Assembly (NCBI RefSeq): GCF_988243305.1
Contig: NZ_OZ547136.1
Direction: 5' to 3' (one strand)
DNA: 64,000 nt
How positions within the stretch are numbered: position 1 is the stretch's first letter; each line of letters starts with the position of its first letter. The notes below the pieces were generated by a model. That model worked only from the letters and a program-made list of their open reading frames with translations. It searched no databases and was not told the origin of the DNA. The position numbers and the translations under genes were made by a program. Shown one piece after another: positions 2,971-32,693 of the stretch.

Positions 2971-5397
2971 ATGATGAAAATCCATACCACAGAGGCGCTC
3001 ATGAAGGCTGAAATCAGCCGTAGAAGTCTGATGAAAACCTCCGCACTTGGCAGTCTTGCGCTGGCAAGCAGTGCTTTCACTCTGCCATTTTCCCAAATGG
3101 TCCGAGCGGCAGAGGCACCGGTAGAAGAGAAAGCGGTCTGGAGTTCCTGCACCGTTAACTGCGGGAGCCGCTGTCTGTTACGTTTGCATGTGAAAGATGA
3201 CACCGTGTACTGGGTGGAGTCTGATACGACAGGTGACGACGTCTACGGTAATCATCAGGTTCGGGCATGTTTACGCGGGCGCTCTATCCGCCGACGGATG
3301 AATCATCCTGACAGGTTGAAATATCCCATGAAGCGCGTCGGCAAGCGCGGTGAAGGTAAATTTGAACGGATAAGTTGGGATGAAGCCCTGGATACCATCA
3401 GTGATAATCTTCGGCGGATCCTTGAAGATTACGGCAATGAGGCTGTACATGTCCTGTACGGAACAGGCGTAGATGGCGGAAACATCACCAACTCGAACGT
3501 CCCGTACCGTCTGATGAACTCTTGCGGTGGTTTTCTCAGTCGCTATGGCAGCTACAGTACCGCTCAAATCAGTGCCGCAATGAGTTATATGTTCGGTGCC
3601 AATGATGGCAACAGCCCGGATGATATAGCCAATACGAAACTGGTCGTTATGTTCGGAAATAACCCGGCAGAAACCCGGATGAGCGGCGGTGGTGTCACTT
3701 ACTACGTCGAGCAAGCCCGAGAACGTTCAAACGCACGCATGATCGTCATCGATCCACGTTATAACGACACTGCTGCCGGGCGTGAAGATGAATGGCTGCC
3801 AATTCGCCCAGGCACCGATGGCGCACTGGCCTGTGCGATTGCCTGGGTACTGATTACTGAAAACATGGTCGATCAGCCATTTCTCGACAAATATTGTGTT
3901 GGTTACGATGAAAAAACGCTGCCCGCCAACGCACCACGTAACGCGCATTATAAAGCCTATATTCTGGGCGAAGGGCCTGACGGCATAGCTAAAACGCCGG
4001 AATGGGCAGCAAAAATCACCAGCATCCCGGCAGAAAAAATTATCCATTTGGCACGAGAGATCGGTTCAGCAAAACCTGCTTATATTTGTCAGGGTTGGGG
4101 GCCACAACGACACTCCAACGGCGAACAAACGTCCCGCGCTATTGCCATGCTTTCCGTTCTCACCGGTAACGTCGGCATAAACGGCGGCAACTCAGGTGTA
4201 CGCGAAGGTAGCTGGGATCTGGGGGTAGAATGGTTCCCGATGCTCGAGAATCCTGTTAAAACGCAGATTTCCGTCTTTACATGGACAGATGCCATCGACC
4301 ATGGTACGGAAATGACCGCGACCCGTGATGGTGTTCGTGGAAAAGAAAAACTGGATGTCCCCATCAAGTTTTTATGGTGCTACGCCAGTAACACATTGAT
4401 CAATCAACATGGCGACATCAATCACACCCATGAGGTGCTTCAGGATGACAGCAAGTGCGAGATGATTGTTGGCATTGACCACTTCATGACTGCCTCGGCT
4501 AAGTATTGCGATATCCTGTTGCCCGACCTGATGCCAACAGAGCAAGAAGACCTTATCTCTCACGAATCTGCCGGGAATATGGGCTATGTGATCCTCGCCC
4601 AACCCGCAACCTCAGCAAAATTTGAACGCAAACCCATCTACTGGATGCTGAGTGAAGTCGCCAAACGCTTAGGACCAGACGTTTATCAAACCTTTACTGA
4701 AGGCCGCAGTCAGCACGAATGGATCAAATATCTCCATGCGAAAACGAAGGAACGTAACCCTGAGATGCCCGACTACGAGGAGATGAAAACGACCGGGATC
4801 TTTAAGAAAAAATGCCCGGAAGAACACTACGTCGCTTTCCGCGCATTCCGTGAAGATCCACAGGCAAACCCGTTGAAAACACCTTCGGGGAAAATCGAAA
4901 TTTATTCTGAACGACTGGCGACGATTGCGGATACCTGGGAATTGAAAAAAGATGAAATTATTCATCCCCTTCCTGCGTATACCCCAGGTTTTGATGGCTG
5001 GGACGATCCCCTGCGGAAAACCTATCCACTGCAGCTAACGGGCTTCCACTACAAAGCGCGTACCCACTCCAGCTACGGCAATATTGATGTGTTACAGCAG
5101 GCCTGCCCACAAGAGGTGTGGATCAACCCTATTGATGCTCAGGCACGCGGTATCCGTCATGGCGATACCGTGCGGGTATTTAACAATAATGGAGAAATGC
5201 TGATTGCCGCAAAAGTGACTCCGCGTATTCTGCCTGGCGTTACCGCCATCGGGCAAGGTGCGTGGCTTAAAGCGGATATGTTTGGTGACCGGGTCGATCA
5301 CGGCGGCAGTATTAATATTCTGACCTCTCACCGCCCTTCACCGCTGGCAAAGGGAAACCCGTCGCACAGCAATCTTGTCCAGATCGAAAAGGTTTAA
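2971..5397 (+). CDS. ynfF: Tat-exported molybdopterin oxidoreductase catalytic subunit YnfF, tandem paralogue of YnfE
   Basis: 808-aa ORF with twin-arginine motif SRRSLMKT and CTVNCGSRC cluster. Collinear similarity to the upstream ORF is visible by eye. The start could be one codon downstream (MKIHTT). Confidence 0.95.
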   Translation: MMKIHTTEALMKAEISRRSLMKTSALGSLALASSAFTLPFSQMVRAAEAPVEEKAVWSSCTVNCGSRCLLRLHVKDDTVYWVESDTTGDDVYGNHQVRACLRGRSIRRRMNHPDRLKYPMKRVGKRGEGKFERISWDEALDTISDNLRRILEDYGNEAVHVLYGTGVDGGNITNSNVPYRLMNSCGGFLSRYGSYSTAQISAAMSYMFGANDGNSPDDIANTKLVVMFGNNPAETRMSGGGVTYYVEQARERSNARMIVIDPRYNDTAAGREDEWLPIRPGTDGALACAIAWVLITENMVDQPFLDKYCVGYDEKTLPANAPRNAHYKAYILGEGPDGIAKTPEWAAKITSIPAEKIIHLAREIGSAKPAYICQGWGPQRHSNGEQTSRAIAMLSVLTGNVGINGGNSGVREGSWDLGVEWFPMLENPVKTQISVFTWTDAIDHGTEMTATRDGVRGKEKLDVPIKFLWCYASNTLINQHGDINHTHEVLQDDSKCEMIVGIDHFMTASAKYCDILLPDLMPTEQEDLISHESAGNMGYVILAQPATSAKFERKPIYWMLSEVAKRLGPDVYQTFTEGRSQHEWIKYLHAKTKERNPEMPDYEEMKTTGIFKKKCPEEHYVAFRAFREDPQANPLKTPSGKIEIYSERLATIADTWELKKDEIIHPLPAYTPGFDGWDDPLRKTYPLQLTGFHYKARTHSSYGNIDVLQQACPQEVWINPIDAQARGIRHGDTVRVFNNNGEMLIAAKVTPRILPGVTAIGQGAWLKADMFGDRVDHGGSINILTSHRPSPLAKGNPSHSNLVQIEKV

Positions 5398-6026: not shown

Positions 6027-6881
6027 ATGGGAAATGGATGGCATGAATGGCCACTGGTTATCTTTACCGTATTGGGTCAATGCGTAGTAGGCGCGCTGAT
6101 TGTTAGCGGAATTGGCTGGTTCGCCGCCAATAATGACGCAGACCGTCAGCGTATTGTCCGTGGCATGTTTTTCCTCTGGCTGTTGATGGGCATCGGGTTT
6201 ATTGCCTCTGTCATGCACCTGGGATCGCCACTGCGAGCGTTTAACTCGCTGAATCGAATCGGAGCTTCTGGTCTGAGTAACGAGATTGCTGCCGGTTCAA
6301 TATTTTTTGCCGTTGGCGGATTATGGTGGCTGGTGGCGGTCATCGGTAAAATGCCGCAAGCGTTGGGGAAACTCTGGTTACTTGTCAGCATGGCGCTCGG
6401 CGTCATTTTCGTCTGGATGATGACCGGCGTGTATCAAATCGACACCGTGCCAACCTGGCATAACGGTTACACTACGCTGGCTTTCTTCCTGACAGTATTG
6501 TTGAGCGGTCCAATACTTGCTGCCGCAATTCTGCGGGCAGCCCGCATTACATTTAATACCACACCCTTTGCCATCATTAGCGTTCTGGCGCTGATCGCTT
6601 GTGCCGGGGTGATTGTGCTGCAAGGTTTGTCTCTGGCGTCTATTCACTCATCCGTACAACAAGCCAGCGCACTGGTACCAGATTACGCCTCCTTACAGGT
6701 CTGGCGTGTGGTATTGTTATGCACAGGTCTAGGATGCTGGCTTTGTCCGCTCATTCGTCGCCGTGAACCTCACGTTGCCGGACTTGTTCTGGGGCTAATC
6801 CTCATACTTGGCGGTGAGATGATCGGGCGTGTGCTCTTTTATGGCCTGCACATGACGGTAGGAATGGCTATTGCAGGTTAA
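6027..6881 (+). CDS. ynfH: Membrane anchor subunit (DmsC paralogue)
   Basis: ATG at 6027 (MGNGWHEWPLVIF...) lies 1 nt after the ynfG stop. The product is a 284-aa polytopic hydrophobic protein. The longer 5787 start in the ORF track overlaps ynfG and is rejected. Confidence 0.93.
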   Translation: MGNGWHEWPLVIFTVLGQCVVGALIVSGIGWFAANNDADRQRIVRGMFFLWLLMGIGFIASVMHLGSPLRAFNSLNRIGASGLSNEIAAGSIFFAVGGLWWLVAVIGKMPQALGKLWLLVSMALGVIFVWMMTGVYQIDTVPTWHNGYTTLAFFLTVLLSGPILAAAILRAARITFNTTPFAIISVLALIACAGVIVLQGLSLASIHSSVQQASALVPDYASLQVWRVVLLCTGLGCWLCPLIRRREPHVAGLVLGLILILGGEMIGRVLFYGLHMTVGMAIAG

Positions 6882-15236: not shown

Positions 15237-15566
15237 TCAGGCAAGTTTCACCATGATCATTCCAGCCAACAGCAAGACCAGGCCAATCCAGCCTTTACGA
15301 TTTAACCGTTGACCAAACAAGATCCAACCTGCGGCTAACGTGGCGGCAATACCAAACCCGCCCCACAATGCATAAGCGACAGACAAGTCGATCCCTTTAA
15401 CGGCCTGAGAAAGCGCACTAAAGGCAGCCAGCACCGCCGCCAGGGAGAGCAAGCCAAATATTTTGCGACGAAAGCCGTCAGAAAATTTCAAAAAAACGTT
15501 AGCAACGATTTCCAGCACGATTGCCAATGCCAGCCAGGCGGCGTGAACCCATTCAAACTGCGCCAT
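15237..15566 (-). CDS. mdtI: SMR-family spermidine exporter subunit MdtI
   Basis: 109-aa four-[37 protein letters not shown]. Confidence 0.95.
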
Positions 15567-15918
15567 GGTTCACCTCCAGTTCAGGTTTACGCGCTTTACG
15601 GGTACCTGATTTGATCAATACAATCCCGGCCACCAGGGTGGTTAACCCGGCAATTTTCATCAGCGATAAACTTTCGTCGAATAACAAAACGCTAAACAAG
15701 GTAATAAATAAAATACCGATACCTTCCCACAGCGCATAAGCCACGCCTAAGGCGATTTTTTTAACGGCGAAAGAGAGAAATATATACGACAGAGAAATCA
15801 TCACCAGCATTAAAATAAAGCCGCCATTTCCCTCACTGACGCTCGCCCATTTCATTGACAGCGTACCGGTAATTTCCGTAGCAATAGCCAGGCCTAATAA
15901 AATCCAATAAATATACAT
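15553..15918 (-). CDS. mdtJ: SMR-family spermidine exporter subunit MdtJ
   Basis: 121-aa [29 protein letters not shown], overlapping the mdtI start by 14 nt. Confidence 0.95.
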
Positions 15919-23868: not shown

Positions 23869-24083
23869 AAAAAAAAGTCCTGGGGTTAAGTAAGGAACTC
23901 CAGGACGCGGCAAACACTCAACCGTTTTTCATAAGGAAATCAGCAATCGCACCGATCGTTTTCCCGCCTGGTAATGAATATTGGCGAGCACATTAACAGG
24001 CGGGAAAGTGGCCCCAGCGTCCTGGCACCACGGGCGAGAATAATCATGATTCAGTTCGGGTAAAATATGCCGATCCGCTCAGT

Positions 24084-24563: not shown

Positions 24564-24791
24564 CTATCCCCATTTCGGCATAAGTGCGATCGACTGCCTT
24601 TTCAGGTCTCCGTAATTATCCGGTGGCTCCGGTGGCCTCTGTGCCTTCCTGGAACATTCCAGCCGTCGCATCGTGATGTGATGCCGTTCCTTGTCTGTCT
24701 CCACCAGCAGCATGACTTCACCCCATCGCGCCGACGCCCTCCGGTAAAATCCTTTAGCCTCGAGTTCCTCCGCTATGCGGTCATGTACCAT
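24564..24791 (-). CDS. PerC-family (PerC/Pch-like) transcriptional regulator
   Basis: ATG at 24791 is preceded by GGGGGTGAGG, right after the ssb stop. The 75-aa product MVHDRIAEELEAKGFYRRASARWGEVMLLVETDKERHHITMRRLEC... resembles the PerC N-terminal signature (..AE.LE.KG.WRRAA.RW..). Confidence 0.65.
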   Translation of the reverse strand: MVHDRIAEELEAKGFYRRASARWGEVMLLVETDKERHHITMRRLECSRKAQRPPEPPDNYGDLKRQSIALMPKWG

Positions 24792-24801
24792 CCTCACCCC
24801 C

Positions 24802-25212
24802 TCAGAACGGAATACCGTCACCGTAAGGGTCATCGCCTCCCGCTGGTGGCTGATTACCCTGTGTGCCTGTGGTTTTGCGTCTGTTCCCGCCAGGACGTGC
24901 CGCACGGGCACTGATTACGCTGTCTGCAATAACCTGCCAGCCCTGCCGCGTTTCTCCGTTCTGTCCGGTCCACTGGCTTACCTGCATCGTGCCGGATACG
25001 CTGGCAACATCGCCTTTTTGATGTTTAGCCAGGAAGTCGGCCTGTTTGCCAAATGCGATGACCGATAACCATAACGTCGCCTGTCCGTCCTGTGCCTGGC
25101 TGCATGGCAAAGATACCGCCATACGCGCCAGCGTCATCGGTGTGCCCTTGCTGGTCTGTTTTACCTGCGGGTCGTCCACCAGCCGCCCGTAAGCGGCTAT
25201 CTGTGCCGTCAT
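24802..25212 (-). CDS. ssb: Single-stranded DNA-binding protein
   Basis: 136 aa with an OB-fold-like N-terminus, a Gly/Pro/Gln-rich linker and a C-terminal acidic tip ..GGDDPYGDGIPF, the canonical SSB tail. Confidence 0.85.
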   Translation of the reverse strand: MTAQIAAYGRLVDDPQVKQTSKGTPMTLARMAVSLPCSQAQDGQATLWLSVIAFGKQADFLAKHQKGDVASVSGTMQVSQWTGQNGETRQGWQVIADSVISARAARPGGNRRKTTGTQGNQPPAGGDDPYGDGIPF

Positions 25213-27819: not shown

Positions 27820-28034
27820 AACCCCCCCCCATTTTCACAATCAGCAACAAGAATATTTTTAGCGTCATTCAGCGACCGCGTTGCGATGTATCGGATACAT
27901 TCCAGGGCGAACTGTGTCCGGTCTTTCTGTTCTTCTCCCTGCGCAAGCTCTGCAGTGCATTCAATATCGATAAGCGCGTGCATCAGCGTAGTGAGCGCGG
28001 CGGCTGCTGCGTCCGGTGTGGTTTTATTGCACAT
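27792..28034 (-). CDS. Hypothetical protein (80 aa)
   Basis: ATG at 28034 is preceded by AGGAGG (MCNKTTPDAAAAALTTLMHALIDIECTAELAQGEEQ...). It overlaps the icd-like 3' end by 11 nt. Confidence 0.55.
   Translation of the reverse strand: MCNKTTPDAAAAALTTLMHALIDIECTAELAQGEEQKDRTQFALECIRYIATRSLNDAKNILVADCENGGGLCVMIVLIP
27822..27830. repeat. Homopolymeric C9 (plus) / G9 (minus) tract
   Basis: Read directly: a CCCCCCCCC a. It lies in the 3' end of the 80-aa ORF and in the RBS position of the 73-aa ORF. Confidence 0.95.
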
Positions 28035-28224
28035 GGCACACCTCCTGACGAATACGGGCGGCGAATACAGCAACACAACCGGACGGGCAACGGCTACGCG
28101 CTTCGCGTTCCGTCCAGGCGGTTACGTGGATGATTTGAGATTCTCCGGCACTTAGTGCCAGAAAACGCCACACAAAGGCCGTTTGTGTGTGTATAAGGCG
28201 TGGTATATGATTTACGGCAACCAT
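28024..28224 (-). CDS. Icd-like (host cell-division inhibitor family) small protein
   Basis: ATG at 28224 is preceded by AGGAG. The 66-aa product ..FVWRFLALSAGESQIIHVTAWTEREARSRCPSGCVAVFAARI.. fits the Icd-like pattern (aromatic core, EREAR, FAAR). It is the only credible part of the 344-aa track ORF. Confidence 0.6.
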   Translation of the reverse strand: MVAVNHIPRLIHTQTAFVWRFLALSAGESQIIHVTAWTEREARSRCPSGCVAVFAARIRQEVCHVQ

Positions 28225-28312
28225 AACGGCTCCTAGTTTACGTTGTTGGTTAGACGCCCCGTATGTGTTCCCAGCACTGCGGGGCGTTGATTTTTGTGTA
28301 ATGGCAAGTACA

Positions 28313-28358
28313 ATGGTAATTACCATGTAGGTATAGTAATGAAGGGTAATTACCATGT
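28313..28358. promoter_or_regulatory. Two copies of GGTAATTACCATGT exactly 30 bp apart (first within perfect 14-bp palindrome ATGGTAATTACCAT): putative operators in a divergent control region
   Basis: Copies at 28315-28328 and 28345-28358; the second covers the start codon of the Arc-like gene. A TATAGT -10-like hexamer at 28332-28337 lies between them. Confidence 0.6.
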
Positions 28359-28528
28359 CAACACCATTAGAAAAACGTTCGCCTCCATACCAAATGCGAT
28401 TACCGGAAGACTTCAGAGCGCAGCTAGAAGAAGCAGCTAAGGCCGATGGCGACACATCTTTAGCCACTTGGATTAAACGCGTTCTCCGCAAAGAATTACA
28501 GCAACGCGGCATAGAGCCAAAAGGTTGA
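28355..28528 (+). CDS. Arc/Mnt-family ribbon-helix-helix DNA-binding protein (57 aa)
   Basis: Read manually because it is below the track cutoff: MSTPLEKRSPPYQMRLPEDFRAQLEEAAKADGDTSLATWIKRVLRKELQQRGIEPKG. The beta-strand (YQMRLP) plus two helices parallel P22 Arc (PQFNLRWPREVLDLVRKVAEENGRSVNSEIYQRV). It is one of only two plus-strand genes in the island. Confidence 0.7.
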   Translation: MSTPLEKRSPPYQMRLPEDFRAQLEEAAKADGDTSLATWIKRVLRKELQQRGIEPKG

Positions 28529-28549
28529 ATTTCAGAAGGAGATAAAATA

Positions 28550-28702
28550 ATGAACTGGCTGTTACATACCCTCCCAGGTCGCATTCTCATTGCACTAATT
28601 ATTTTATGGATTTTGTACCAATTCGGTTTTTTCGATTCGCTTTGGAAGCCTGACTGTTCCGTTAACCCTGGCGATGTACTGAAAGGCTGTAAAAATGGCT
28701 GA
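28550..28702 (+). CDS. Small single-pass membrane peptide (50 aa)
   Basis: AGGAGA RBS lies 6 nt upstream of the ATG. Product MNWLLHTLPGRILIALIILWILYQFGFFDSLWKPDCSVNPGDVLKGCKNG* has one TM helix and a two-Cys C-terminal tail. It is followed by two hairpins (28705-28719, 28735-28749). Confidence 0.6.
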   Translation: MNWLLHTLPGRILIALIILWILYQFGFFDSLWKPDCSVNPGDVLKGCKNG

Positions 28703-29057
28703 TCAGGGTTACTCCCTGTAATGCCTTTAACTGGCCCTCTTAAAGAGGGTTGGTTATCTTCGCAGCTCTCTACGTTTTTCGTCGGAACCTCTGAACCTAA
28801 GCAGTGTTGATGTTCAGGAGAACCCGAATACTGTTCGTGTTCGTTGCTCGCCAATTCTCGCGTTTCGCGATAATCAAAATGATTCAATGGGTTGAGATGT
28901 CCGTACGTTAAACGTACGCGGTTAATTTGTACATGCGAATTTCGTCGGCTCAAATTCTGCGCAACCCTGCTTGAGTTATGCAAATAGCACGCGGCTAACT
29001 CACAAGGATTTGAGCGCCCCCAAACGGGGGAGCGCAAAATTTTAGGCATAAGACGCA

Positions 29058-29771
29058 TCAGCGAATCTCCAACACTGACGATGAAGTGATCAGGCTGGCG
29101 AACGCATCCATACGGCGGGCAACCTCACGCACCGCATCGCCTGGACTCATGTCATTACGCACCGCCTCATTAAAGGCCGCCTGTTCGATTTTCTGCATCA
29201 CTACCAACAGCCCCAATTGCTGTTCGTCTGCGGTACCGCGTTCACCATCAGACAAACCAGCCACGCGGTTTTCAGCGCGGGCCAGATTGATGTAATGGTG
29301 CCGTTGTGCGCCCAGAGCTTTTAATCTGTCGCGGCTTTCGTGATAGCCAGGCAGGTACTCACGGCGGATAGGTTCTGCGGCGCGGCGCTTAGTGAATGCC
29401 TTCGTAACATCCAGTTTGAACTGGTTAATACGCTCAGGATCACGCCCTCGGGTGATACGCAGCAGATAGTCGAGCTGCGGCTCATTCAGCAGATAACTAA
29501 TCTCAGGACGCCCACGCTTTCGGCCGGATTTTCCCGATTTCAAATCGGTTAATTCCTTGAGTGACTGACGAGGCAGTGATCCCAGCTCGCGCAATCTGCT
29601 CTGGTGCGATTTAATCGTCGCGCTTAAGCTTTCATGTTGTATTCCGGCTCGCTCTGAAATAACGCGGGAATCGATACGCGGCTCCGATTTGTGATTAATT
29701 AAAATATCGCTCTGGCTGGCTTCAGGGCGAACGAATCCCCGCCCACGTTCTGGCGTATATTCAATCTTCAT
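29058..29771 (-). CDS. Phage regulatory protein, tentatively Rha/antirepressor-like
   Basis: 237 aa. The N-terminal region IDSRVISERAGIQHESLSATIKSHQSRLRELG resembles the Rha-type HTH region. The functional assignment is weak. Confidence 0.6.
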   Translation of the reverse strand: MKIEYTPERGRGFVRPEASQSDILINHKSEPRIDSRVISERAGIQHESLSATIKSHQSRLRELGSLPRQSLKELTDLKSGKSGRKRGRPEISYLLNEPQLDYLLRITRGRDPERINQFKLDVTKAFTKRRAAEPIRREYLPGYHESRDRLKALGAQRHHYINLARAENRVAGLSDGERGTADEQQLGLLVVMQKIEQAAFNEAVRNDMSPGDAVREVARRMDAFASLITSSSVLEIR

Positions 29772-29828: not shown

Positions 29829-30017
29829 TTAATGAACTGCCTTGCAGCTATCCTTCCAGGCCAGAACCTCGGATAAAGACCAGCCAACGGAACGACCGCC
29901 AAGTTTACGACGTGATGGGAATTGTCCGGCCTTTTCCAGGCGGTAGCGACACGTACGGCTAAGGCCGGTTAGTTTTTCGCATTCTTTTTCACGTATAAAC
30001 CGATCAGTGCTTAACAC
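29829..30017 (-). CDS. alpA: AlpA-family regulator / excisionase-like protein
   Basis: 62 aa with a GTG start after AAAGGGGG. ..IREKECEKLTGLSRTCRYRLEKAGQFPSRRKLGGRSVGWSLSEVLAW is the classic AlpA/Phage_AlpA signature. Confidence 0.88.
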   Translation of the reverse strand: MLSTDRFIREKECEKLTGLSRTCRYRLEKAGQFPSRRKLGGRSVGWSLSEVLAWKDSCKAVH

Positions 30018-30381: not shown

Positions 30382-31611
30382 TTATTTTCTTCTGGCTACT
30401 GGTAGCGTGGTTACGTTTTCATGTGTTCCCGCCAGTATCCCTAACCGCTCCGTCCACATATCCAGCGCATTGCGTTTAGCATCCAGATAACGGGAATGAT
30501 TATAAACTCGCTGCATTCCTGGCATCTGGTGGCCTGTAAGCTGCTCCACGACATGCGGATCAACGCCTAAATCGTTCAGCATGGTTGTAAAGGTGCGCCG
30601 GATGTCATGCAGTGACCAGTGAGGATGATTAAGCCTCCTGTGCGCTAATCTTCCATACTGCGATACGCTGGCCTCCTGTTTCACTTCCCCCAGCAATAAG
30701 CCCGTGTGCCTGTTCTGCTCCACCAGCTGCGTGACGAACGGCAGGATCGCTTCCGGTATGGGCCGGAATATTGCGACCTTCGTTTTGCTGTGCTCCTTCG
30801 GAACGGTCCATAGCATTTCCGTAAAATCCCACTCCCCGATCTCCGATAACCTCAGTTCTACCGTTCTGGCTCCGAAGACAATCAGGAGGCGGATTAACGC
30901 GACGTAGTAAGGGGAGAATATTTTTTTGTCCAGTGCCTGCAATAATTCGCCAAGTTCTTTGTTACTTAAGACACGTTCGCTTATATCCGGTTTTTTCCCA
31001 ACGTCCGCCACGTTCAGATCGTCCAGAACGTTGCTGATTGCATAGCGCCGCCTACGGCAGAACTTAAGCGCCTGTTTGCACGCCTGTAGCACGAATCCGG
31101 CAGTAACAGGCGTTCGCTTTGCCACCTGGTCAAAACAGGCCAGCCAGTGCCGTAGCTCGCATTTATCCAGCGGCATAGCACCAATCTGCTGTATTACGTG
31201 ATTATTAAGTCGCCTTTTCAGGGCGATATAATCCACGCGGTTTTCCTTTACGTAATACTCAAGCCAGTAGGTGAGCGCATCGCCAACCGTTACGGGCTTT
31301 AACGCTTCCTGTACGGTGTAATTCATCTCATGACGTGGATTTTTCCCCTCAGCCAGCCATGTGCGACACTGTGCGGCTTTTTCCCTGGCTGCTTTCAGGC
31401 TCAGATCAGGATAACTTCCCAGCTTAATGCGTTCGGGTCGTGTCTCCCTTCCCGTTCCGGCCCTGTATGTGAAATACCAGGTCAATTTCCCTGATGTTAA
31501 ATATTTCACGCTCAGGTTTCCGCCATCACTATAAAACGTGTTTTTCTCCGCTGGCTTACCATGAAGTTTCCTTAGCAAGGTATCGCTCAGTTTGTTCATT
31601 GCTCTGCTCAC
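30382..31611 (-). CDS. int: Tyrosine recombinase/integrase, P4-type (DUF4102 arm-binding N-terminus)
   Basis: 409 aa. The N-terminal ..LSVKYLTSGKLTWYFTYRAG..IKLGSYPDLSLKAAREKA.. is typical of P4-like integrases. Catalytic residues lie in ..HDIRRTF.. and ..HQMPGMQRVYNHSRY. GTG start at 31611 (SD GAGGGGG), or ATG at 31599. Confidence 0.92.
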   Translation of the reverse strand: MSRAMNKLSDTLLRKLHGKPAEKNTFYSDGGNLSVKYLTSGKLTWYFTYRAGTGRETRPERIKLGSYPDLSLKAAREKAAQCRTWLAEGKNPRHEMNYTVQEALKPVTVGDALTYWLEYYVKENRVDYIALKRRLNNHVIQQIGAMPLDKCELRHWLACFDQVAKRTPVTAGFVLQACKQALKFCRRRRYAISNVLDDLNVADVGKKPDISERVLSNKELGELLQALDKKIFSPYYVALIRLLIVFGARTVELRLSEIGEWDFTEMLWTVPKEHSKTKVAIFRPIPEAILPFVTQLVEQNRHTGLLLGEVKQEASVSQYGRLAHRRLNHPHWSLHDIRRTFTTMLNDLGVDPHVVEQLTGHQMPGMQRVYNHSRYLDAKRNALDMWTERLGILAGTHENVTTLPVARRK

Positions 31612-31636
31612 GTTTTACCCCCTCTTTACGAAAAAG

Positions 31637-31705
31637 TGACTACACCAGTGACTACACCGATCGTTGCACAAAGGGCTACAACGTGAAACAAGCTGGAACA
31701 AGGAA
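31637..31705 (+). repeat. Right arm repeat: TGACTACACC x2 followed by 10-bp-phased ACAA units
   Basis: The 22-mer is identical to 16541-16562, followed by acaacgtgaa acaagctgga acaagg. It lies between the int start and the attR core. Confidence 0.7.
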
Positions 31706-31786
31706 AATCACAAATCTGTTGATAATCAAAAACATAATGCACAGCCTGAAACATTATGAAACAGCAAAAAACACTAAATGATAAAA

Positions 31787-31795
31787 TGCTGTTAT
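31787..31795 (+). repeat. attR core TGCTGTTAT
   Basis: Identical to 16458-16466. tqsA codons A44-V45-I46 resume here. Confidence 0.85.
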
Positions 31796-32693
31796 TCTTA
31801 ACCCGCTGGTGCAACACATGGTCCGCTGGCGAGTGCCGCGTGTACTGGCGGTGTCGATTTTGATGACCATCATCGTGATGGCGATGGTGTTGCTGTTAGC
31901 TTATCTGGGTTCCGCACTCAACGAGTTGACGCGGACGTTACCGCAATATCGCAACTCTATTATGACGCCGCTGCAAGCGCTTGAACCGTTGTTGCAACGC
32001 GTAGGGATTGACGTCTCAGTTGACCAACTGGCGCATTACATTGATCCGAACGCGGCGATGACGTTGCTCACCAACTTATTGACGCAGTTATCTAATGCCA
32101 TGTCATCAATCTTTTTATTGCTGCTGACGGTGCTGTTTATGCTGCTCGAAGTGCCACAATTGCCCGGAAAATTTCAGCAAATGATGGCGCGTCCGGTTGA
32201 AGGGATGGCGGCGATTCAGCGTGCGATTGACAGTGTTTCTCATTATCTGGTGCTGAAAACAGCCATCAGCATCATCACCGGCCTGGTCGCCTGGGCGATG
32301 CTCGCCGCACTCGATGTTCGCTTCGCTTTTGTCTGGGGATTGCTGGCCTTTGCGCTTAATTACATCCCGAATATTGGTTCAGTTCTCGCGGCAATCCCCC
32401 CTATCGCTCAGGTATTGGTGTTTAATGGCTTCTACGAAGCGTTGCTGGTGCTGGCGGGATATCTGCTGATTAATCTGGTCTTCGGCAATATTCTGGAGCC
32501 GCGCATCATGGGGCGTGGGCTGGGGCTTTCCACATTGGTGGTATTTCTGTCGTTGATTTTTTGGGGATGGTTGTTAGGACCGGTGGGTATGCTGCTTTCC
32601 GTGCCGTTGACAATTATTGTCAAAATTGCGCTTGAACAAACAGCGGGTGGTCAAAGCATCGCCGTTCTGTTAAGCGATCTCAATAAAGAGTGA
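31787..32693 (+). pseudogene. tqsA: tqsA 3' portion (codons 44-344), separated from its promoter and first 45 codons
   Basis: In-frame continuation ..[30 protein letters not shown]... runs to the K-12 C-terminus LLSDLNKE*. A stop (TAA 31782-31784) lies immediately upstream in frame. Confidence 0.93.

Follow-up and report, generated by a model that had tools for sequence, protein, structure and literature searches.

A candidate membrane peptide gene behind a putative repressor gene, antisense to an eta-like reading frame, in a phage satellite of Escherichia coli

Introduction

P4 immunity resides in the left operon, where vis is followed by eta/kil and the CI RNA (Forti et al. 1999 J Bacteriol 181:5225, as summarised in PMC10111431). 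In that summary of Forti et al. 1999, eta is described as holding an internal promoter and ending in kil, and its translation as keeping the transcript of the late promoter from terminating (PMC10111431). Related phage-inducible chromosomal islands (PICIs) have been reported to carry P4-type immunity RNAs (PMC10111431), and the global repressor of Gram-negative PICIs has been called unclear (PMC6092414). Here we analyze a stretch of 64,000 nucleotides (nt) of Escherichia coli DNA (NCBI RefSeq assembly GCF_988243305.1, contig NZ_OZ547136.1), referred to below as the window. It carries an island that, by its gene content, is a capsid-forming PICI (cf-PICI) satellite. Our subject is a gene for a 50-amino-acid (aa) single-pass membrane peptide in this island. 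It lies directly behind the gene of a putative ribbon-helix-helix (RHH) DNA-binding protein, and an initial annotation, made from the sequence alone, had proposed it as a possible toxin or exclusion factor.

The island resembles the P4 immunity region in having a gene of the AlpA/Vis family followed by a long, translationally coupled open reading frame (ORF). Inside this ORF a promoter is predicted, and nested at its end is a Kil/Icd-like gene that has a start of its own. Unlike P4, the island has no CI/seqA-type RNA: between positions 24000 and 32000 we found no match to Rfam C4/isrK at E <= 1, nor to any other RNA family. Also unlike P4, it encodes a protein RHH regulator with operators, together with the peptide, on the opposite strand and inside the eta-like ORF. 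The papers that we consulted on these islands mention neither the RHH gene nor the peptide.

It is useful to compare the locus with two further kinds of system. In the P22 immI region, with Arc and Mnt, and among phage RHH repressors more broadly, a small RHH protein likewise goes with paired palindromic operators, which in our locus overlap predicted face-to-face promoters. An antirepressor-type (Bro/Rha/Ant) gene is present in the island's region too. The locus departs from these systems in that its RHH protein scores below the Pfam Arc threshold, its RHH gene is antisense within another ORF, and its operators are predicted. The second kind comprises membrane proteins that are expressed by lysogens and exclude superinfecting phage, such as HK97 gp15, T4 Imm, lambda RexB, and lactococcal Sie2009. 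The peptide is similar to these in several respects: it is small, membrane-anchored, and accessory, its gene lies in or beside the repressor unit of a temperate element, the element can complete its cycle without it, and its distribution is patchy. It differs in having no sequence relationship to them (PHROGs, PADLOC, Pfam) and in being hosted by a satellite, not a phage. A small membrane cargo gene on the repressor operon of a temperate element is of a familiar kind. The protein family itself is new, as is its location in a phage satellite. New as well, as read from the sequence, is the placement of peptide and RHH genes antisense within a selected eta-like ORF, where they appear to replace P4-type RNA immunity. 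The architecture of the locus is arguably more interesting than the peptide.

Results and Discussion

The peptide (MNWLLHTLPGRILIALIILWILYQFGFFDSLWKPDCSVNPGDVLKGCKNG) is encoded at 28550-28702 on the plus strand, starts with ATG, and is known in three diverged forms. Our translation of the interval gives 50 residues identical to those in the initial annotation. The RHH gene precedes it on the same strand (28355-28528, 57 aa; a predicted Arc-like DNA-binding protein and candidate immunity repressor), and direct reading places its TGA stop at 28526-28528. A Shine-Dalgarno sequence, AGGAGA, occupies 28537-28542 on the plus strand, 7 nt 5' of the peptide ATG; it is unpaired and optimally spaced. 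The distance of 21 nt that had been quoted between the RHH stop and the ribosome-binding site (RBS) is correct for the gap from the stop to the ATG; the RBS itself begins 8 nt past the stop. An inverted repeat (28542-28551/28598-28607) was considered as a means of masking the start codon and was rejected, being all A-U and not conserved in the related locus L006. Within the surrounding 9 kb there are 106 ORFs of at least 30 aa, and a 50-codon ORF is by itself unremarkable at this chance level. The peptide ORF stands above it because the ORF, start, stop, and RBS are kept in diverged islands.

The three forms of the peptide, at 100, 84, and 53% identity, occur in PICIs of at least three enterobacterial hosts. 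A word-indexed search of 5.8 billion proteins returned only one identical and one 84% identical relative. An exhaustive HMMER search of 1.84 billion representatives added one more (P0003, 49 aa, 53% identity), and three other HMMER matches were discarded as transmembrane (TM)-like stretches of large proteins. A profile search of the 5.8 billion proteins gave nothing beyond the three known clusters. None of the relatives has a name or an NCBI or UniRef accession. No match was obtained by tblastn against 50,697 phage records and a plasmid collection, where the low-complexity filter may mask the TM part, and IMG/VR scans gave no relative. Assemblies were scanned at one genome per species with narrow word patterns. 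Besides the window, the peptide ORF lies behind an RHH gene in metagenomic contigs (L002-L005), Rahnella perminowiae (L006), and an enterobacterium other than E. coli (L007-L011; the acrEF region of the L007 host is 73% identical to its E. coli counterpart). E. coli islands without the peptide, such as L012 and L013, were compared as well.

The contigs that encode the peptide share one context. A plus-strand RHH gene is followed 21-24 nt on by the peptide gene with its Shine-Dalgarno sequence, with divergent Icd-like and replication genes on one side and alpA and int on the other. The Shine-Dalgarno sequence is AGGAGA in L002-L006, and AAGGGA stands at the matching position in L007. The initial annotation's proposal of a single-pass membrane peptide gene is supported. 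The lack of conservation in related islands, which it had named as a refutation, is not what we see: three lineages keep the ORF uninterrupted, at identities as low as 53%.

The pattern of divergence between the copies indicates which frame is coding. The window and L007 copies share 56% nucleotide identity, and their differences are distributed 18/9/37 over codon positions 1/2/3 (49 codons). Synonymous sites are saturated, and the nonsynonymous substitution rate (dN) is 0.35. In the plus frame, the BLOSUM62 scores sum to 143, with 26/49 identities; the sole other open frame reaches 67, with 18/48. Against the 84% identical copy, the ratio of dN to the synonymous rate (dS) is 0.34, the lowest among the six frames. 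Invariant columns number 25/50 (G10 R11, L22 Y23, G26, F28-D-S-L, P34-D-C-S, N39-P-G-D, K45, and C47), and the tail of the 49-50-aa product keeps the pattern FDSL..PDCS.NPGD..K.C. Residues 12-28 stay hydrophobic, with exchanges confined to I, L, V, F, A, and G. The copies also agree in their start, stop, length, and RBS. Because of the codon-position bias and the BLOSUM62 contrast between frames, we judge the peptide frame to be coding. On this sequence pattern, the plus frame is a protein under purifying selection, and the peptide ORF is very probably a real, translated gene.

The initial annotation missed the position of the RHH-peptide operon, which lies antisense inside an eta/kil-type ORF of the minus strand. 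This eta-like ORF (28024-29058, minus strand, 344 codons) runs through the peptide gene, the RHH gene, and both of the promoters predicted in this region. It starts at an ATG (29058-29056) that shares bases with the TGA stop of the Rha-like gene before it (TGATG), and GGAG stands 8 nt upstream. Its C-terminal part is a nested Icd-like (P4 kil-like) gene (28024-28224, minus strand), which has its own ATG at 28224 after TAGGAG. The Icd-like domain matches NCBIfam NF033153 (phage_ICD_like, E = 1.1e-16, residues 295-338), and PHROG matches as well. The Pfam Phage_ASH domain is not found in the window's eta-like copy and is present in L001.

The minus frame is open in 9/9 related loci. It extends for 310-432 codons in the seven that reach the upstream end, and it is open for at least 250 and at least 327 codons up to the contig end in L002 and L005. 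In these seven loci, the first eta-like ATG overlaps the stop of the upstream gene or lies within ~17 nt of it. Beyond the peptide, different lineages have unrelated DNA, yet the frame stays open. Elsewhere, the ORF spans 5465-6694 in L001, 3132-4187 in L006, 5391-6380 in L007, 2491-3501 in L012, and 2506-3366 in L013. We shuffled the parts of the minus frame not overlapped by plus-strand genes 2000 times. Stop-free shuffles numbered 5 for the window, 12 for L001, 11 for L006, 3 for L012, and 7 for L013, and made up 6% for the segment of L007, which is shorter. Stops number 4-12 in the two remaining minus frames. Selection on the eta-like frame to stay open is thus demonstrable from the sequences, far beyond chance. 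From this avoidance of stop codons we infer that the ORF matches the P4 design in which translation prevents termination.

If the eta-like frame is kept open, the DNA that carries the peptide gene has to be a multiple of three in length and free of stops on the other strand. It is in-frame and stop-free on the minus strand in both diverged forms. At the peptide's risk codons (Tyr, His, and Gln), the last base of the preceding codon avoids a minus-strand stop. As far as sequence can tell, the locus clearly exemplifies dual coding of the two strands under selection. The overlap is also why the region is inconsistently annotated in public databases. In some records, the region appears as pseudogene fragments labeled "Icd-like," on the opposite strand, or "ash family," and the RHH gene is left uncalled; others call the RHH product "YlcI/YnfO family protein," "HicB family antitoxin," or "hypothetical protein."

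Dual coding raises an alternative explanation of the peptide ORF, namely that the 174 nt carrying it are an in-frame, stop-free insertion in the eta-like ORF and that the plus-strand ORF is its shadow. In a variant, only the length or translation of the RHH transcript would matter, as a cis-regulatory spacer or as antisense cover of the eta mRNA. In its favor, the minus frame is open across the inserted DNA in all copies, the insert is a multiple of three long, and selection for openness is demonstrable. Moreover, third codon positions are common to the minus and plus frames, and many changes are silent in both. Nevertheless, the plus frame is the better kept as protein (BLOSUM62 143 vs 67, 53% vs 38% identity). 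The least variable position is plus codon position 2, which is minus position 1. Residues 12-28 remain hydrophobic, although translation of the minus frame gives a radically different product, and ATG, stop, and a properly spaced Shine-Dalgarno sequence are retained at 56% nucleotide identity. We therefore hold the shadow explanation to be decidedly unlikely.

The peptide gene belongs to an optional cassette consisting of spacer, RBS, and ORF (28529-28702, plus strand, 174 nt, 58 codons), which is missing from L012 and L013. In alignments of these two E. coli islands, the RHH stop is followed directly by CAGGGTTACTCC, which forms hairpin 1, and next by hairpin 2. Compared with the window, they show a clean 174-nt indel whose junctions share AAAAGGYTGA/AAAAATGGCTGA. 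Because these junction sequences are shared, the position of the breakpoint is ambiguous by a few bases. In the window, the cassette is bounded at 28517-28528 and 28691-28702 by two short sequences that resemble each other, CCAAAAGGTTGA and TAAAAATGGCTGA. This arrangement suggests that the cassette was gained or lost by microhomology-mediated recombination. The final Gly-stop of the peptide resembles the original RHH gene end of cassette-less islands.

The region through the end of the RHH gene occurs in 705/5,426 complete E. coli genomes, and in the contig collection, 6,226 indexed blocks contain precisely this 57-aa RHH. The cassette is absent from every annotated record that we examined. 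Depending on the island, the slot after the RHH gene is empty or holds either this peptide or a basic ORF of 62-75 aa. Such variable content is typical of accessory cargo, and from its position the peptide is best read as accessory cargo between the repressor gene and the 3' structure of the operon. A connection of the peptide with the Rha-like gene was considered and rejected, since L012 and L013, which lack the peptide, still have a homologous upstream gene, and the other neighbors found in L006 and L007 contradict it too.

An unrelated hydrophilic, basic ORF of 62-75 aa, with a different hairpin before it, takes up the slot in the majority of E. coli islands that have the identical RHH. Examples lie at 6372-6560 in L001, 2732-2959 in L022, and 2732-2923 in L024. 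The L022 and L024 ORFs share ...KFAL..FV.KYPRRLK..KNRPPG, and the L001 ORF matches phrog_21027, which has no function assigned. These ORFs may be a second accessory family at the same site.

The peptide gene is probably co-transcribed with the RHH gene. We base this on its position and on the spacing of 21-24 nt in every copy, and no promoter or terminator was found between the two genes. Single-operon organization had been proposed in the initial annotation and agrees also with the 3' hairpins, which are shared with peptide-less islands, where homologous hairpins lie directly 3' of the RHH stop. Both hairpins described there are present on the plus strand (28704-28756). The first, with 5 base pairs (bp) and a 5-nt loop, is at 28704-28718, one base away from the position given; the second, CCCTCT/AGAGGG at 28735-28749, forms the center of a longer stem of 13 bp (28728-28756). 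The fold of 28695-28800 has an energy of -34.6 kcal/mol, compared with -23.7 +/- 3.3 kcal/mol for dinucleotide shuffles (z = -3.3, 0/200 as good). In L007, a canonical intrinsic terminator with 7 G-C pairs and a T-run lies at 6344-6373 on the plus strand, 194 nt past the peptide stop and a few bases before the start codon of the opposite-strand eta-like ORF. Given this position, the L007 RHH-peptide transcript would be antisense to nearly the whole 5' part of the eta-like mRNA.

The RHH protein matches PHROG 228, "Arc-like repressor," with E = 1.5e-6, and falls below the cut-offs for Pfam Arc (0.038) and NCBIfam YlcI_YnfO_N (0.0014). A profile of ten RHH variants gave weak matches in the PDB to VapB26 (E = 0.067) and Arc. 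The variants differ chiefly in the N-terminal half and have the C-terminal ...RKELQQRGIEPKG in common. Two palindromic, operator-like copies, ATGGTAATTACCAT and GGGTAATTACCATG, lie at 28312-28358, 30 nt apart, and the second contains the RHH start codon. Other RHH variants have different paired palindromes at the same place, which change along with the N-terminal half. Operator type GTACGTACGTAAC pairs with one RHH type whether the peptide is present (L002) or absent (L012). The variant pairs are at 28287-28361 in the window, 5739-5802 in L007, 5746-5813 in L011, 2774-2825 in L012, 4745-4796 in L002, and 2445-2504 in L014. Among the variants, the downstream palindrome copy overlaps the RHH start codon.

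Two sigma-70 promoters, both of them consensus matches only, are predicted face to face, overlapping the operators. One would serve the RHH-peptide operon (TTGATT-16-TACAAT, 28287-28314, plus strand). The other would drive the Icd-like/replication operon leftward (TTGACA-17-TACTAT, 28333-28361, minus strand; 10/12 consensus positions). This leftward promoter overlaps operator 2, and its position corresponds to that of P4 PLE. This layout suggests that the RHH protein is the island's immunity repressor, which would autoregulate and also repress the leftward Icd-like/replication operon. A repressor active in the quiescent island, as the initial annotation had supposed, fits the locus because the paired palindromic operators change with the N-terminal half. 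The combinations of RHH and palindrome variants have the appearance of immunity types belonging to a protein repressor of Gram-negative PICIs. In the island L022, from E. coli, two RHH modules that differ from each other stand in tandem on the plus strand (2501-2674 and 3179-3358), which may represent double immunity or a recombination intermediate.

The same evidence bears on whether the pair is a toxin-antitoxin (TA) or addiction module, as the initial annotation had proposed. The peptide would then be a membrane-depolarizing toxin, either paired with the RHH as antitoxin or held back as an abortive-infection effector until phage attack. An RHH gene followed by a small gene does resemble a type II TA operon. 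The annotation pipeline PGAP names a sister RHH "HicB family antitoxin," and the weak likeness of the RHH profile to VapB26 points the same way. Hok/Gef-type toxins have a size and a TM-plus-tail shape like those of the peptide. Like Hok/Gef (PF01848) and other type I membrane toxins, it has ~50 aa and a TM helix followed by a polar, Cys-bearing tail. However, ~700 complete E. coli genomes have the identical RHH but lack the peptide, which for its part accompanies at least five RHH specificity variants, and the two do not co-vary. The RHH has only 57 aa, without an extra domain and without room for an extension that could bind a toxin, and small membrane toxins are not known to have a protein antitoxin. 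The peptide matches neither Hok/Gef, Ldr, TisB, and Ibs nor any PADLOC model, so no toxin or defence family is recognized. It is also unlike Hok/Gef in being the second gene of a protein-regulator operon and in having, instead of a dedicated short antisense RNA, a long ORF on the opposite strand. Furthermore, a strong, unmasked Shine-Dalgarno sequence on a constitutively transcribed repressor operon would be unlikely for a lethal peptide. The TA and addiction proposal therefore fares badly, and we consider a toxin of any of these kinds highly improbable.

What the peptide does can be approached through its predicted shape. A single TM helix, as first annotated, is upheld by a hydrophobic segment at residues 12-28 with a mean Kyte-Doolittle value of 2.46 (best 17-residue window). 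An AlphaFold2 model places a helix at residues 8-24, with a predicted local distance difference test (pLDDT) score of ~86 over residues 11-20 and moderate confidence there only. The mean pLDDT is 65, falling below 50 for residues 39-50, and the tail is too poor for a fold search. The two C-terminal cysteines reported initially are Cys36 and Cys47, which flank the NPGD motif. If the tail is periplasmic, C36-C47 would give a disulfide-stapled NPGD hairpin.

Our favored explanation joins this shape to the regulation outlined above. The RHH protein would bind the two palindromic operators, repressing the leftward Icd-like/replication promoter and autoregulating its own. The peptide would be made with the repressor while the island is quiescent and would insert in the inner membrane. 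There, its conserved helix face and Cys-bracketed NPGD loop would bind a host envelope protein. The most likely result would be exclusion of incoming phage or satellite DNA, an effect of the lysogenic-conversion "moron" type and not cell killing. We rank exclusion first by analogy, mainly of position, with the membrane proteins that temperate phages express in lysogens. As a whole, this explanation is tentative, with a probability somewhat below even. Its central step, action through binding of a host membrane or periplasmic partner, comes close to an even chance. We favor a defined contact over unspecific membrane damage because the helix residues and the whole Cys-bracketed loop are invariant. 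That the effect would be exclusion of phages or satellites is rather doubtful when taken separately.

Several observations weigh against our explanation. First, the peptide family is tiny, with three 90% clusters among 5.8 billion proteins, and Pfam, PHROG, NCBIfam, and PADLOC contain no match to it. The initial annotation likewise recognized no family, and our wider searches gave the same answer: Pfam returned nothing at E <= 0.1 (P0001) and nothing relevant at E <= 10 (three family members), and the PDB sequence search returned only a chance TM match, integrin alpha-L, at E = 0.85. In the families searched, we found no similarity to known exclusion, defence, toxin, or regulatory small proteins. 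Second, with 1-2 Lys or Arg residues on the N side of the helix and 2-3 on the C side, the positive-inside rule leaves the topology unfixed, and a periplasmic disulfide loop is thus only one of the options. Third, the codon-position test has only two independent divergent comparisons behind it, and part of the nucleotide conservation could stem from the overlapping minus-strand ORF. Fourth, the peptide gene is clearly dispensable, and the DNA at 28529-28692 has no match in the 5,426 complete E. coli genomes, even at blastn sensitivity. Finally, promoter consensus matches are no more numerous than in shuffles, and neither 3' hairpin has a canonical U-tract or was listed by a terminator scan.

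A defined partner could also mean a purely regulatory role. The peptide might be a small regulatory membrane protein of the MgrB/AcrZ/SgrT kind that tunes a host sensor kinase, transporter, or division protein to the advantage of the resident island or its host; it would, for example, buffer leaky division inhibition of the Icd/Kil-like type and have no direct anti-phage role. MgrB has a TM helix and a periplasmic C-x10-C. The peptide shares with MgrB-type proteins a length of ~47-50 aa, one TM helix, and a short tail with two conserved Cys 11 positions apart, that is, with 10 residues between them. Its invariant helix residues G10, R11, Y23, G26, and F28 suggest a defined partner, and the Icd-like gene adjoins. 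Yet the likeness is one of architecture only: there is no Pfam match to MgrB (PF13998) or to another small-protein family, and the peptide gene is mobile-element encoded. In addition, islands that retain the same Icd-like gene may lack the peptide gene, and no partner can be named. A regulatory role of this kind is unlikely.

Our favored explanation, binding of an envelope partner with exclusion as the outcome, can be extended to the island's competitors. The RHH-peptide operon might be a protein-based immunity module of Gram-negative PICIs, encoded antisense to the eta-like leader, in which the peptide, as a new kind of exclusion factor from a satellite, sits in the inner membrane and blocks the delivery of DNA by particles with helper-type tails. 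A resident satellite would then exclude rival satellites or nonhelper phages. In a second version, the peptide would sense injection and feed back on the switch. We regard such an immunity module as quite unlikely. Should the peptide exclude phages or rival satellites, it would be among the smallest factors known to do so, and cf-PICIs would be seen to carry cargo in their repressor operon. More broadly, annotation systematically overlooks the small membrane proteins of mobile elements, and this peptide, which is absent from NCBI and UniRef, is one case. An RHH protein with variant-specific operators, encoded antisense in a P4-eta-like leader, is in turn a concrete and testable candidate for the global repressor of Gram-negative PICIs.

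About 35 nt inside the Icd-like coding sequence lies a terminator-like hairpin with a T-run (28189-28159, minus strand), which could be a translation-sensitive attenuator. This candidate was dropped, as no counterpart of the hairpin was found in L006 or L007.

The island extends from ~16 kb to 31.8 kb of the window. It has the genes that mark cf-PICIs and their prototype, EcCIEDL933 (preprint 10.1101/2022.09.08.507074): int, alpA, a replication gene, and its own capsid, protease, portal, TerS, and TerL genes, in ~15 kb. The tyrosine integrase gene is at 30382-31611 (minus strand), the island being inserted in the 5' part of tqsA. The alpA gene, of the PICI activator/excisionase family, follows at 29829-30017 (minus strand; Pfam Phage_AlpA, 5.4e-17). 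Between it and the eta-like ORF lies the gene of the Rha-like (Bro-network) regulator (29058-29771, minus strand), convergent with the peptide gene; it matches Pfam Phage_pRha at 1.7e-5, below the cut-off, and PHROG 2657 at 1.8e-7. Further island genes encode the Icd-like protein, DUF4222, a RepA/AAA_25 helicase, single-stranded DNA-binding protein (SSB), major capsid protein, prohead protease, portal, TerS, and TerL. A PerC-family protein is encoded at 24564-24911 (minus strand; Pfam E = 1e-30), and a PerC homologue of another E. coli PICI is a reported repressor of expression of the locus of enterocyte effacement (LEE) (PMC11773190). All of the island genes named in this paragraph lie on the minus strand. 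The RHH and peptide genes are the sole plus-strand genes that we found over 24-31.6 kb, the stretch of the island studied closely.

One flank of the island is tqsA-pntB, with 99% identity to E. coli. On the other flank, two small ORFs (15237-15918) are presumably mdtIJ. Of tqsA, which encodes an autoinducer 2 (AI-2) transporter, only a remnant ORF of 294 codons with a GTG start is left at 31600-32693 of the window. A related island occupies this site in strain 28Eco12, where PGAP marks the equivalent tqsA as "missing N-terminus."

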